The notes under the pieces: generated by a model
Told to the model about the DNA's origin: nothing
Databases searched by the model: none
The model's input: only the letters and a program-made list of their open reading frames with translations
Part shown: positions 30,000 to 37,302 of the stretch, in pieces
Numbering within the stretch: the stretch's first letter is position 1
Layout: the number at the start of each line of letters is the position of its first letter
IMG/VR virus record: IMGVR_UViG_2671181094_000008
Span: 1-40,078 of that record
Length of the DNA: 40,078 nt
Source: a virus
Taxonomy: Duplodnaviria > Heunggongvirae > Uroviricota > Caudoviricetes
Strand: one strand, 5' to 3'
Position numbers and translations under genes: made by a program

Positions 30000-30227
30000 T
30001 TAGGCGGCCGGTGAATGCGCGCTCAGCAACTGAGCAAGGTCAGGCCTGATCTCTGCCGCCTTAATCTTGCCGTTGGTCGCAGACACGATTTTCATTACAT
30101 AGCGAGCGTCAATTCCGCCGCCATGCAGCCAGCGCCAAACTGTCGGCTGCGCTACGCCACACAGATCGGCCAATTTTTTCTGACTGCCAGCGATATCAAT
30201 TGCCTTCTGGATGGTTTTGTTCGTCAT
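30000..30227 (-). CDS. Cro-like HTH repressor
   Basis: Start MTNKTIQKAID preceded by AGGAA; first gene of the rightward operon, divergent from cI. Confidence 0.6.
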   Translation of the reverse strand: MTNKTIQKAIDIAGSQKKLADLCGVAQPTVWRWLHGGGIDARYVMKIVSATNGKIKAAEIRPDLAQLLSAHSPAA

Positions 30228-30302: not shown

Positions 30303-30330
30303 TTGACCAGTAATACGCAAGCGTATAAAT
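30303..30330 (+). promoter_or_regulatory. PRM-like promoter for cI with overlapping operator
   Basis: TTGACC, 15-16-nt spacer, TATAAA(T); near-palindrome ATACGCAAGCGTAT (30313..30326) in the spacer; transcript would be almost leaderless. Confidence 0.45.
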
Positions 30331-30338
30331 TTGAGATT

Positions 30339-31037
30339 ATGAAAAAAGAAACTCTTGCAGATCGTTTAAACGAGGCCATGGCTTCGGCTGGAATGTCACA
30401 AGGGGCGCTTGCGAAGGCCTCAGGTATTGCTCAGCCAACCATTTGGCGCCTGGTGAGTGGAAACGCCAGGGGTTCAACAAAAATTGTCGAGATAGCTAAT
30501 GCTTTGGGCGTCAGGTCTGAATGGTTATCAACCGGAAATGGACCGATGCGCGATGACGGCCAGCTCCCTCGCGCTGCCCAGGTTAAAAGCCAGGATACTG
30601 ATGCATTCAGGATTGATGTGCTGGACCTTATGGTTAGTGCCGGGCCGGGCATCGTGAACCAGGAGTTCGTCGAGATTCTCCGTTCTGTTGAGTATGAGCC
30701 AGCTGAAGCCCGGCACATGTTCGATGGGCGTAAGGCTGAGAACATCCGGATCATCAACGTCCGGGGCGACAGCATGTCTGGGACGATTGAGCCGGGTGAT
30801 CTGCTGTTCGTCGACATCAGCGTTAAGAGCTTCGACGGCGACGGGATATACGCCTTCCTGTACGACGACACTGCTCACGTCAAGCGCCTGCAGAAGATGA
30901 AGGATAAGCTGCTGGTTATCTCAGATAACAAGAGCTATGCCCCTTGGGAACCGATCGAGAAAGATGAGATGAATCGGGTGTTCGTGTTCGGCAAGGTGAT
31001 CGGCAGCATGCCGCAGACGTACAGGAAGCATGGGTAA
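30339..31037 (+). CDS. CI-like repressor (HTH plus S24 LexA-like autopeptidase domain)
   Basis: N-terminal HTH, C-terminal GDSMSG (Ser nucleophile) and VKRL (Lys); divergent from cro. Start MKKETLADRL chosen over the upstream ATG to leave room for the operators. Confidence 0.85.
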   Translation: MKKETLADRLNEAMASAGMSQGALAKASGIAQPTIWRLVSGNARGSTKIVEIANALGVRSEWLSTGNGPMRDDGQLPRAAQVKSQDTDAFRIDVLDLMVSAGPGIVNQEFVEILRSVEYEPAEARHMFDGRKAENIRIINVRGDSMSGTIEPGDLLFVDISVKSFDGDGIYAFLYDDTAHVKRLQKMKDKLLVISDNKSYAPWEPIEKDEMNRVFVFGKVIGSMPQTYRKHG

Positions 31038-31059
31038 AGCCTTAGCACACAGAGGAAGC

Positions 31060-31179
31060 ATGTCTGATCTGATTATCCCAATACTCATTACTTTGCTGAT
31101 TATCGGGCTGGTTGGGATCGTGCTCAGGCTAGATAAGATTTTCTTCAAGCGAAGGGATGAGCGGGATGACTTTGAATAA
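31060..31179 (+). CDS. Small hydrophobic membrane peptide (39 aa), absent from the ORF track
   Basis: MSDLIIPILITLLIIGLVGIVLRLDKIFFKRRDERDDFE: one TM helix and charged tail; GAGG 4 nt upstream of the ATG; 22 nt downstream of the cI stop. Confidence 0.4.
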   Translation: MSDLIIPILITLLIIGLVGIVLRLDKIFFKRRDERDDFE

Positions 31180-31304
31180 GCCAGACCGGTAGTTCGATGT
31201 GTTTTTGGTAATGCCGAAGACGTACAGGAAGCATGGATAGCCAGCCAGTGGCCTGACAAGGTGTTTGGGTGATGAGAAGATAGCAATAACTTAGAGGCTT
31301 AAAT

Positions 31305-32069
31305 GTGATCAGAATAGGAAGGTTACTACCTGGCGGCATTGCAATTGACGAAGGGCAACATCACCCGATAAAGGGCGTTGCTCTTTTGATAAAAGAAAAT
31401 AGCGAACCAGAAGAGATTGTTGTTTTTGCAAAAGAAATATCTTCTAGGAGCATTTCTATAGAAATAACCTGCGCAGCCTTGGGAAGAGCTCTATCCCTGC
31501 CTATACCCGAGCCAGTACTACTGTTTGACAGCTCAAACAAAGCATTTTTTGGTAGTGTTGATGCTACCTATCCGAGTTTCATGAAGTATGTTTCTAACTC
31601 TTCAGATCAGGCCGTTTCTGATGCTTTGGCATCATGGCCGTTATTGAAAAAAGCTAGCTATTTTGATGAGTGGATTGCGATGGATGACCGTCACAACGGA
31701 AATTTGCTTTTCAATGGTGATGGTTTCTTCCTGATAGACCATGAATCGGCAATTCCCCAAGGTCTTGCCCCTGACCTTTTCGGGATAGATTATTACTCCA
31801 ATCAATTGCTGCAGGTAGCAACTTACATACTCGATAGAAGTAATGATATAGCCGTTCAGATGATGGCAAATGAGGCGAGAGCTTGGACCATGTCTTGCAA
31901 GAGTAACACCCTAACGCTATTAGATGGAGAGATATCCGAAACAGTTCAAGGTAAAGAGAAAAATCAAATAATGTCTTTCCTTTCATCTAGAATTGAGTTA
32001 CTAGGAGACATTCTTTATGATCAAATCAAGCCCCAACAAACACAGATGATATACGATGCTAAATCTTGA
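31305..32069 (+). CDS. HipA / PI3-4-kinase-like fold protein
   Basis: GTG start with AGAGG 8 nt upstream; catalytic-loop-like DRHNGNLLF and downstream FFLIDHES; AT-rich; co-oriented downstream of cI. Confidence 0.5.
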   Translation: MIRIGRLLPGGIAIDEGQHHPIKGVALLIKENSEPEEIVVFAKEISSRSISIEITCAALGRALSLPIPEPVLLFDSSNKAFFGSVDATYPSFMKYVSNSSDQAVSDALASWPLLKKASYFDEWIAMDDRHNGNLLFNGDGFFLIDHESAIPQGLAPDLFGIDYYSNQLLQVATYILDRSNDIAVQMMANEARAWTMSCKSNTLTLLDGEISETVQGKEKNQIMSFLSSRIELLGDILYDQIKPQQTQMIYDAKS

Positions 32070-32937
32070 TCAGCTTCTTAAGTCAGCTCCTGCTATGCCT
32101 GCAACATCAGGGCGCTGGGCATCTGTTTATCTTGAACCAATGATCGGCTCAGGAGAGCGGCTCACGGTAGCAGTTGCCACGATAACATCATCTGGTGAAA
32201 TTTTAGTTAAGCCGGCAATCAGAAAAGAAGTTATAGAAGCTATGTATGGCTTCAAAGCACCAGCATTTATCAATGTGGTTGATCTGATTTTGTCGAGTTT
32301 GAAGTTGCATCTGGCTGCTAAGGGGGATTTCGTATCATGGCATCCTCCAGTTACAGGCGTCACTATAAGCGCCGTAAGGAATGCTGCGTCATCAAGCCCT
32401 GTTGGCATACTCCGCCAAGCGGTATCATTGTCATCGAGTTTGTCATCACTCCTTGAGGCTGAAGAAGATTCCGATGGGTTGCCAGCTAAGCAATCAAGAA
32501 CTAAAGACAGGTGGCCAATTCAAATCTTTGATGCGGTTATCAGCGCTGACGGACGCAGGGATATTTTTTTCAATAGAAGCTTCACCTTTAGTGATGGACA
32601 CAGACCGGCTAAAATTTTCTATCTAAGCGATCATGCAGCTATCAACACCGGAAAACTGTTACCCCACAACTTGAATGAGCAGGTTAAGGATGGAAAAGCA
32701 AAAATATCTGACTTATCAATGATAAAAAGGCAAGGCGATATTTTTCCAAGAGAAACTCATCAAATGATTATCTACAAACCGGAAGATGATAGCCCTGCAT
32801 ACAATGATAGGCACATAGCATCAATAAATAGTGCGTACCTTTCTTTACAGGACTTGGCTAACACCTACGATGTATCAATCACTTCTGTAAGCACTGCCGA
32901 GCATGCAGCAAGGTTAATATTGCAAACTGCAGCATAA
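32056..32937 (+). CDS. Hypothetical protein, translationally coupled partner of the kinase-like gene
   Basis: 293 aa; start overlaps the upstream gene by 14 nt; no motif I recognise; AT-rich. Confidence 0.5.
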   Translation: MLNLDQLLKSAPAMPATSGRWASVYLEPMIGSGERLTVAVATITSSGEILVKPAIRKEVIEAMYGFKAPAFINVVDLILSSLKLHLAAKGDFVSWHPPVTGVTISAVRNAASSSPVGILRQAVSLSSSLSSLLEAEEDSDGLPAKQSRTKDRWPIQIFDAVISADGRRDIFFNRSFTFSDGHRPAKIFYLSDHAAINTGKLLPHNLNEQVKDGKAKISDLSMIKRQGDIFPRETHQMIIYKPEDDSPAYNDRHIASINSAYLSLQDLANTYDVSITSVSTAEHAARLILQTAA

Positions 32938-32945
32938 CTTTTGAT

Positions 32946-32970
32946 CCGGCCACCGCGCCGGGTTTTTACT
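32946..32970 (+). terminator. Rho-independent terminator ending the cI-cassette operon
   Basis: CCGGC-loop-GCCGG hairpin followed by GTTTTTAC immediately after the cassette stop. Confidence 0.5.
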
Positions 32971-32973
32971 GCC

Positions 32974-33177
32974 CTACTCTTCCCTCAGCATCAGCACGTC
33001 CAGCGCCAACTCCACAGCCAGATCGACCTGGTCTTCCTGCCACAACACCTGAATCATCTCTATCAGCGCCTCTCTTGATGGCTCGCGCCTCTCAACCAGC
33101 AGCTGCATAACCGCTATCCCGATGACCTGCGCAATCTGCGGGTGCATCTCTGCGAAAAACTCATCCTCATTCGACAT
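32974..33177 (-). CDS. Small acidic hypothetical protein, convergent with the cI operon
   Basis: Start MSNEDEFFAEMHPQ chosen; gene begins at the edge of the OL-like operator region. Confidence 0.4.
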   Translation of the reverse strand: MSNEDEFFAEMHPQIAQVIGIAVMQLLVERREPSREALIEMIQVLWQEDQVDLAVELALDVLMLREE

Positions 33178-33289
33178 GGCGCTACCCTTTTTGGCGTTTT
33201 TTTGAGCATAACAGCACAATAGGAAAAAATAAATTCATTTAGCTATCAATGATTTAATAGCAATAGCTATCAAATAATAACAATACGTA

Positions 33290-33318
33290 TTGCTATGGTT
33301 AATACTCATTGCTATTAT
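33290..33318 (+). promoter_or_regulatory. pL-like early-left promoter with OL-type operators
   Basis: TTGCTA, 17-nt spacer, TATTAT (same architecture as PR); perfect palindrome CAATACGTATTG at 33281..33292 overlapping the -35, plus TAGCAATAGC-type repeats upstream. Confidence 0.55.
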
Positions 33319-33397
33319 CATCTCATCCAAACAACACCGGCAACGCCGGGGTGAAGTCAAAACGTCCCGTTAGCCGCGATAAGGCAAAGGTGAAGAG

Positions 33398-33505
33398 ATG
33401 ATCCGCGAAGAAGACAAGCCTGCATGGCGTAATTTTTGGTTAAAGGTCGTTCCGTTTTTGGTTGCTGTTCTCGCAGTTAGCTATCCGTGCTGGGGTGGCA
33501 AATGA
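33398..33505 (+). CDS. Small membrane peptide (35 aa), first gene after pL
   Basis: MIREEDKPAWRNFWLKVVPFLVAVLAVSYPCWGGK; AGGTGA 6 nt upstream; ATGA overlap with the next ORF; not in the ORF track. Confidence 0.35.
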   Translation: MIREEDKPAWRNFWLKVVPFLVAVLAVSYPCWGGK

Positions 33506-33612
33506 GCAAACAAGGCATTCGTTCACTGATTTACTGCCTGCTGATCTGCGGCGTTATCTGGTCGGCTGTTGTTATCAAAATTCTGCACGTTACGGGGGTG
33601 TTCAATGGCTAA
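33502..33612 (+). CDS. Small membrane peptide (36 aa)
   Basis: MSKQGIRSLIYCLLICGVIWSAVVIKILHVTGVFNG; overlaps both neighbours; not in the ORF track. Confidence 0.35.
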   Translation: MSKQGIRSLIYCLLICGVIWSAVVIKILHVTGVFNG

Positions 33613-37089: not shown

Positions 37090-37302
37090 CGCCAGAAGAA
37101 AAAGAAAACGCTCTCCGCGCCCAGGCTCGTCGCTGCGCAGAAGAGATAACCAAAGCGATGAGCGTAAAGCCTAAACCGAAGTGGAACGCTGTATGCCCCC
37201 CATCCTTCGCAAGCACTACGAGAAGGTAAAGCCGATGGGTGTCAGCCTGGTGAAATTTGTCAGTGTTATTGGCCACATGAATGGGCGGTATGGAGTGGAA
37301 TC

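Follow-up and report, generated by a model that had tools for sequence, protein, structure and literature searches.

The direct repeat that brackets a small peptide gene downstream of the cI repressor gene is most probably a scar left by recombination where the immunity module meets the accessory-gene slot of a lambdoid (Klebsiella-type) prophage, in which short patches derived from repressor gene ends serve as homology arms. The scar is layered but of an ordinary kind, with close published precedents, and involves no new mechanism. A repeat search of the window (the whole stretch of 40,078 nucleotides that was analyzed; Table 1) gives two copies of 29 nt that are identical at 27 of 29 positions, lie 203 nt apart from start to start and are separated by 174 nt. 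The copies differ at position 7 (C/A) and at position 27 (G/A), and the uninterrupted identity between the copies is only 19 nt. These sites are the sole matches to the degenerate repeat pattern in 40 kb (0.00 expected in 100 shuffles). The initial annotation described a repeat of 31-34 bp with two mismatches; the repeat and its mismatches are real, but the greater length requires a 2-nt gap (GGGTAAAGCC versus GGATA--GCC). The peptide ORF that it placed between the copies was confirmed, at 39 aa, and is the sole ORF in the inserted segment.

Table 1. Features of the repeat region and its surroundings, in window coordinates (an asterisk denotes a stop codon)
Feature	Position	Strand	Description
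cro-like gene	30000-30227	minus	
cI repressor gene	30339-31037	+	232 aa from the ATG at 30339; HTH and S24 peptidase domain
Repeat copy 1	31008-31036	+	Coding 3' end of cI: MPQTYRKHG and first bases of the stop codon
AGGAAGCATG	31053-31062	+	Shine-Dalgarno sequence and start codon of pep1
pep1 (MSDLIIPILITLLIIGLVGIVLRLDKIFFKRRDERDDFE)	31060-31179	+	39-aa predicted single-pass membrane-peptide gene
Segment X	31180-31210	+	31 non-coding nt; always linked to copy 2
Repeat copy 2 with stop codon	31211-31240	+	Non-coding cI 3' end remnant; left edge of cassette slot
Lambda/P22-type cI 3' end remnant, IASQWPDKVFG*	31237-31272	+	Third frame; last 11 codons
Two-gene accessory cassette, rexAB position	31305-32937	+	254 aa (31305-32069) and 293 aa (32056-32937)
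Conserved right flank	32946-33611		Includes 67-aa ORF and PL-like promoter region
67-aa ORF, phrog_3946	32974-33177	minus	E = 4e-39

The window contains a lambdoid immunity region in inverted orientation, with the replication genes on the minus strand. The cI product matches Peptidase_S24 (PF00717; E = 2.4e-18) and HTH_3 in Pfam and the phrog_4 repressor in PHROG (E = 6e-68), and its S24 domain stops about 12 residues short of the C terminus, leaving the tail GSMPQTYRKHG* beyond the domain. An unbiased set of 80 loci, picked by cI protein motifs outside the tail, yields 46 unique 3' ends from genes that are 81-99% identical; the tail is invariant in all 46, whereas its third-codon positions vary as in the remainder of cI. 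This combination of an invariant protein and normally varying third positions argues that copy 1 is selected at the protein level, like any ordinary coding sequence. With regard to the surrounding region, the protein in the cro position matches Pfam YdaS_toxin (E = 5e-17) better than P22_Cro, and a PRM-like promoter (TTGACC-17-TAAATT) was found within 30303-30341, its end lying 8 nt before the cI start codon. As in lambda, the cI transcript may have little or no leader.

Copy 2 retains the frame MPKTYRKHG* with its own TAG, the initial annotation having asked whether any cI-terminal frame survives there, but there is a stop codon six codons upstream, and copy 2 is therefore part of no gene. 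A longer stretch of cI frame upstream of it (FDVFLV) did not hold up, the local alignment being insignificant (p = 0.40). Homology between the window and its relatives, which were sought in phage and E. coli genome collections, breaks at 31037, at 31211, and at 31240-31247. The last of these is where homology to relatives with other cassettes stops, and 31211 is where it begins in the E. coli JNQH498 prophage (L001), which has an unrelated cI allele (…KLRLV*, TGA), a single non-coding copy of the repeat and then the cassette of the window, without the peptide gene; the two are 99.45% identical over 1826 bp downstream and share only 41 bp upstream. Klebsiella phage ST101-KPC2phi6.1 (L003) has the same cI, peptide gene and copy 2 followed by RexA/RexB, and other cassettes are found in E. 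coli W21 (L004) and EC20 (L002). In nine listed pairs of filled and empty sites, the single copy of the empty form aligns by blastn to each of the two copies in the filled form, the alignments overlapping by 29 nt, and in four of these (L015/L069, L033/L054, L031/L017 and L019/L023) the cI C-terminal domain and the cassette are both shared. The proposal that accessory DNA entered at a recombination junction downstream of cI, with a single copy marking the empty site, is thus supported by these relatives, and insertion and deletion both fit. No locus with two copies and an empty interval was encountered among the loci compared.

The variable accessory slot occupies approximately 31241-32945. 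The 254-aa product of the cassette has a weak match to the HipA_2 kinase family (E = 1e-5, below the Pfam cutoff) and to the PADLOC candidate PDC-M66A, and the 293-aa product is phrog_21150; as judged from these matches, the two genes are plausibly a prophage defense pair. RexA/RexB fills this slot in L003, L002 and L004 have other gene pairs there, and homology to L002, L003 and L004 restarts at 32946-32971. The 67-aa phrog_3946 ORF in the right flank is convergent with the cI operon, lies between the slot and the PL-like promoter, and is present in all four relatives inspected.

A remnant of a second type of repressor gene follows copy 2 directly. The sequence at 31237-31272 is identical to the end of lambda cI at 28 of 36 positions and to that of Salmonella phage S107 cI at 32 of 35 (p about 2e-4 in each case), and its blastn matches fall within annotated cI genes. 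Lambda/P22-type repressors terminate in …GKV[IV]ASQWP[ED]E[TV]FG* (C terminus GKVIASQWPEETFG, homologous to the remnant), a pattern that is present in the window as a remnant outside cI; unlike in lambda, the tail has been pushed out of frame by the 35 nt encoding GSMPQTYRKHG*. Deleting these 35 nt restores …FGKVIASQWPD(E/K)VFG followed by two stop codons, and joining window position 31001 to 31240 reads …FGKVIASQWPDKVFG with the same two stops. The remnant stands immediately after the cI stop codon in about 37 of 81 loci with window-type cI, including the 83%-identical E. coli type. In phage S107 the tail is part of the coding sequence, and this phage shows homology to L043, L089 and L186 from the exact junction of core and lambda-type tail through about 1045 bp of cassette; the tail and cassette therefore move as one unit between phages with different repressors. 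A hairpin or hammerhead-like pattern (CUGAUGAG) with apparent covariation 3' of copy 2 was rejected as a structural element, the pattern being that of the lambda-type tail codons W-P-D-E; Rfam gave no match to it and its folds were insignificant. Tandem lambda-type tail remnants were observed after the cI stop in L188, L182, L197 and other E. coli-type loci (…GATGAGATATTCGGGTGA TGATGGACCGAAGGGATGTTTGGGTGA…). Lambda itself (L130, J02459) has the sequence TCGGCAAGGTGTTC immediately after the cI TGA, at about 37213-37226, which is identical at 13 of 14 positions to the window-type cI codons F-G-K-V-I (p about 0.001); L265 and L271 have this post-stop sequence as well, behind an unrelated cI allele. 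By this resemblance, the reference phage may itself retain a trace of a displaced repressor gene.

The gene between the copies, pep1, is conserved: its 28 unique alleles are all intact and have a dN/dS of 0.07 at a dS of 0.63. The hydrophobic core of the predicted peptide is of transmembrane grade (Kyte-Doolittle mean 3.14, residues 4-22). A 49-aa form starting from an ATG within copy 1 was discarded in favor of the 39-aa form because the extension is not conserved in the L006 context, and readthrough of the pep1 stop codon into segment X, copy 2 and the lambda-type tail, with which it is in frame in the window, was discarded in view of a 1-nt indel in X that breaks the frame in L006-type loci. 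A protein search with the 49-aa form as query gave 48 clusters, all "hypothetical" and confined to Klebsiella and E. coli prophages, and no family was found in Pfam, PHROGs, PADLOC or NCBIfam. The gene is confined to this locus, where five different sequences follow it, diverging immediately past the stop codon; in the lysogen, the maintenance promoter presumably drives pep1 along with cI. As a small hydrophobic peptide of 39 aa, its product resembles the toxins of type I toxin-antitoxin systems; the search for an antisense gene gave no minus-strand promoter in the segment, no Rfam family and no protein family.

In three of the five contexts, the first 33 or so nucleotides after pep1 resemble the lambda-type tail (window X, p about 0.005; L063, p ≤ 1e-4; L060, p about 0.005). 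Segment X is probably a decayed lambda-type cI tail, as judged from its positional global alignment with the lambda-tail consensus, which gave the p value of about 0.005, and from the sequence at the same position in L063, which is clearly lambda tail; local alignment shows no similarity of X to the part of cI upstream of copy 1. Because the sequences that follow pep1, including X, resemble this tail, the window can be read as two units, each consisting of a cI end and a lambda-type tail, of which the first has been split by pep1. The variability of X is low, with 5 segregating sites in 31 positions versus 19 in 39 synonymous sites of pep1 (p = 0.005) and a π of 0.021 versus 0.114, so that its conservation equals that of the non-synonymous positions of pep1. 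This could indicate a function and counts against a pure-scar interpretation, but a neutral reading exists, in which X would have a single, younger origin and recombination would import old diversity into pep1 from the other contexts in which this gene occurs. A weak hairpin spans the junction of X with copy 2; the C-to-A change specific to copy 2 strengthens it, but its z is only -1.56.

A scan of viral and genome collections gave 129 loci containing the 18-nt core of the repeat, of which 26 have two copies, 25 of them at a spacing of 203 nt and one at 166 nt. It should be noted that this set was selected on the 18-mer itself, and the core was for that reason abandoned as a candidate for a site conserved at the nucleotide level: its apparent exact conservation came from the selection, and loci chosen by motif vary normally at third positions. 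At least eight unrelated contexts, of which several are non-coding, lie upstream of the core, and over 12 different cassettes lie downstream; phages with dissimilar flanking modules thus have one short sequence in common at the module border. The initial annotation held that a widespread element unrelated to insertion would contradict an insertion scar. The sequence is indeed widespread, as the normal tail of this cI family and, in the form of short remnants, behind at least three other repressor types, but it is always located at recombination junctions.

The repressor genes upstream of the core provide a record of these exchanges. In the loci with alternative cI genes that were used here, those ending …ETK[LM][RK]L[VI]*, the stop codon is followed by a core remnant, by the lambda post-stop sequence, by a lambda-tail remnant, or by nothing recognizable. 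The remnants in L231 and L232 share variants of the synonymous type, as well as cassettes, with the coding copies in L148 and L143. A 131-aa non-S24 repressor (…YMGRRIKGDGE*) precedes remnants in some loci and is itself reduced to a remnant in others. Core remnants have left ends that vary by context, over about 22-41 nt by inspection, which indicates independent joins. Several of the junctions share a GGTGATCG / TGATCGGCA motif in which the TGA is the stop codon of the upstream gene. Five spacing classes (154, 166, 203, 270 and 557 nt) each bracket one to three genes for small hydrophobic peptides. In L119 and L065, pep1 and pep2 are stacked, which is the product expected of unequal crossing-over in the repeat, and in L070 and L022, where the core copies are 557 nt apart, the interval contains a lambda-tail remnant, a 23-aa hydrophobic ORF, the end of the 131-aa repressor, a pep2-like gene and pep1.

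Copy 2 is the terminal 29 nt of a cI gene belonging to this family and would have been carried on the left edge of the cassette together with an older lambda-type tail remnant. In the simplest history that would account for this arrangement, two related prophages were joined once, by a non-homologous or microhomology event: a phage with the order cI-pep1-X would have been linked, immediately 3' of X, to a phage with the order cI-(lambda-tail remnant)-cassette, at a position 29 nt short of the end of its cI gene; such a join would be viable because the resident cI stays intact. A tandem duplication of a unit comprising the cI end and lambda-type tail, with pep1 within the first unit, would be an equivalent alternative. 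The cI-end patches could afterwards act as homology arms for RecA or for phage Red/RecT-type enzymes, and recombination between them would allow the peptide module to be lost or gained, small-peptide genes to be stacked and the large cassette to be swapped across repressor types. Anatomy and empty sites, the identity of the remnants and the coding-type evolution of copy 1 are directly shown, whereas we infer this order of events, and likewise that the patches rather than longer flanks were the recombination source of the observed combinations. The minimum perfect identity is reported to be 23-27 bp for Redβ and 31-34 bp for RecA (PMC3945230). Bet and Gam are encoded by relatives, and the observed breakpoints, as well as L231 and L232, are consistent with crossovers inside a patch, although the 19 nt of perfect identity shared by the copies in the window lie below these minima for efficient exchange and make this particular pair a poor substrate.

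One property of the remnants fits this history less well. The recognizable ones of window-type cI ends are all about 22-41 nt long, with none longer, at eight or more apparently independent junctions; random joins would leave longer ones too, which counts against the scar interpretation. Selective retention of the patches derived from repressor ends (the 29-nt core and lambda-type tail, perhaps also X), either as portable homology arms or as a 3'-UTR or leader element, is suggested by this uniform shortness, by the unusual conservation of X and by the persistence of remnants across Klebsiella, E. coli, Salmonella and lambda; on balance it is unlikely. If it were true, there would be a recombinase-independent cassette array downstream of the repressor, through which lambdoid prophages of different immunity would draw on a common pool of small membrane peptides and defense cassettes. 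A related proposal, that the repeat is a functional RNA or translation signal retained before the cassette, with AGGAAGCATG acting as ribosome binding site and start codon (translational coupling, protection from Rho polarity) or the repeat as a processing site, is distinctly improbable. This 10-mer is present exactly within both copies (31023-31032 and 31226-31235) and occurs three times in 230 nt, once as the true start of pep1, a recurrence with a p of about 0.002 in local alignment against shuffles; conservation among the non-coding copies is good, each of them keeping, by inspection, no fewer than the final 22 or so nucleotides, and X together with copy 2 is less variable than neighboring synonymous sites. 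However, the coding copies in E. coli-type cI genes have lost both elements of this signal, ATG and Shine-Dalgarno sequence (AGGAAGCACGGT, CGAAAACACGGT), while the architecture is unaltered, which disposes of AGGAAGCATG as a universally needed start signal; the mini-ORF from the ATG is not conserved (MDSQPVA*, MGSR*, MGS*…), many alternative-cI loci have no remnant at all, the repeat region has no Rfam match and no significant fold, and the exact conservation that seemed to favor a signal is an effect of choosing loci by the 18-mer.

Two explanations invoke a dedicated mobile system. In one, the 29-nt sequence would be the site of a site-specific, integron-like system and peptide cassettes with a 3' copy would insert at the copy in the cI end. 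The cassettes are stackable, each ending in the core (L016, L043, L067 and L119), and the junction right after …GCATGGNTAR is constant for many of them, but this constant right junction is the stop codon of cI, the left ends of the remnants are not constant, and the coding copy drifts at synonymous positions like any codon. Moreover, pep1 and pep2 are also present without a 3' copy, no recombinase is annotated beside the slot in the four relatives inspected, and the site has neither an inverted repeat nor a significant hairpin (z from -1.2 to -1.6), which makes such a system very improbable. In the other, pep1 and its flanks would form a mobile element of the IS or MITE kind, or similar, whose target-site duplication would be the repeat. 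Such an element would fit a discrete 174-nt insert between direct repeats with known empty sites, but a duplication of 29 nt far exceeds known ones, the repeat search of the window gave no inverted repeat at the ends of the segment, no transposase was found, pep1 is restricted to a single locus with downstream sequences that diverge after its stop codon, and the same repeat brackets different peptide genes; we consider this explanation extremely improbable. The recombination scar, with its patches as homology arms, remains the preferred interpretation.

Duplicated gene ends of this type have been described in mycobacteriophages. In LRRHood, a 1.35-kb insertion lies between 29-bp direct repeats (Pope et al. 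2011, PMC3029335); as in the window, one of the repeats lies at the very 3' end of a gene and relatives have a single copy, and the insert contains accessory, immunity-related genes. The authors likewise left open whether the insert was gained by recombination in the repeat or lost between the copies (PMC3029335). The two cases differ in that the window has an insert of 174 nt with a single gene of 39 aa, that its duplicated gene end comes from the prophage repressor itself, and that its repeat recurs across many phages and contexts, the LRRHood repeat being confined to one subcluster. In genes 67 and 68 of Island3, the C-terminal 18 residues of one gene (about 50 bp) are repeated at the end of an inserted neighbor that is absent from Brujita (PMC3029335). 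There, too, a duplicated gene 3' end brackets an extra small gene, and the authors credit general recombination at a short shared sequence (PMC3029335), but the second copy in Island3 is the coding end of the inserted gene, whereas copy 2 of the window is non-coding because pep1 stops 31 nt before it. The features of scars of the LRRHood and Island3 type, namely flanking repeats, one of which is a native gene end, and collinear relatives with a single copy, are all found here, and the signatures of transposition (terminal inverted repeats, a transposase and a short target duplication) are absent from the segment, as this type of scar requires.

Genes of lambda and its relatives offer further comparisons. 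As in the cI-rexA-rexB operon of lambda, a repressor gene is followed by accessory or exclusion genes transcribed with it, but the cassette of the window is a HipA_2-like pair and not Rex. Morons, in the sense of Hendrix and Juhala, are small extra genes between two conserved genes that are present in some relatives only. Like a moron, pep1 is variably present between conserved genes and is likely to be expressed in the prophage; unlike one, it lies inside the repressor operon and appears to lack its own promoter and terminator, a consensus scan of 31037-31305 having given no promoter-like or terminator-like site. Short boundary or linker sequences between the modules of lambdoid phages were reportedly proposed by Susskind and Botstein in 1978 and by Clark et al. 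in 2001. The patches described here resemble such linkers in being common to otherwise different phages and in standing exactly at module borders; they differ from dedicated linkers in being remnants of displaced repressor genes, the creation of which still takes non-homologous joins. The linker hypothesis is summarized in PMC3029335, and relaxed homologous recombination by Redβ and Rad52-like recombinases was described by De Paepe et al. 2014 (PMC3945230), both notions being established for lambdoid phages; the patch length of 29-41 nt is within the range that Redβ can use (23-27 bp of perfect identity; PMC3945230).

The locus provides a well-replicated example of how lambdoid prophages swap accessory and defense genes behind the repressor. 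Cassettes retain the last few dozen bases of the repressor gene to which they were last attached and these remnants pile up in layers, among which three repressor families are recognizable; phage lambda itself may carry a short trace of this kind. The remnants also flag places in which small membrane peptides expressed by the prophage, which are usually missed by annotation pipelines, may be sought. Two hydrophobic ORFs located between cI and a terminal core remnant, MKESSRFALIVIALLLCVLFVVQAIVLLVK (30 aa; L043 and L113, the 270-nt class) and MREYLIVGVVTLLSVVAIVLMVA (23 aa; L022 and L070, the 557-nt class), had no family match in NCBIfam and further family searches. A second bracketed ORF of 32 aa, MKIGIVFPVVVFIVAVAFMAWFVFGGYVTPGE, which is located at about 1755-1853 in L016 and is also present in L008, L025, L040, L043, L067 and L119, is a member of the YoaK family of small membrane proteins (NCBIfam NF033821, E = 2e-16, above the cutoff) and thus a phage-borne homolog of an E. 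coli small protein.
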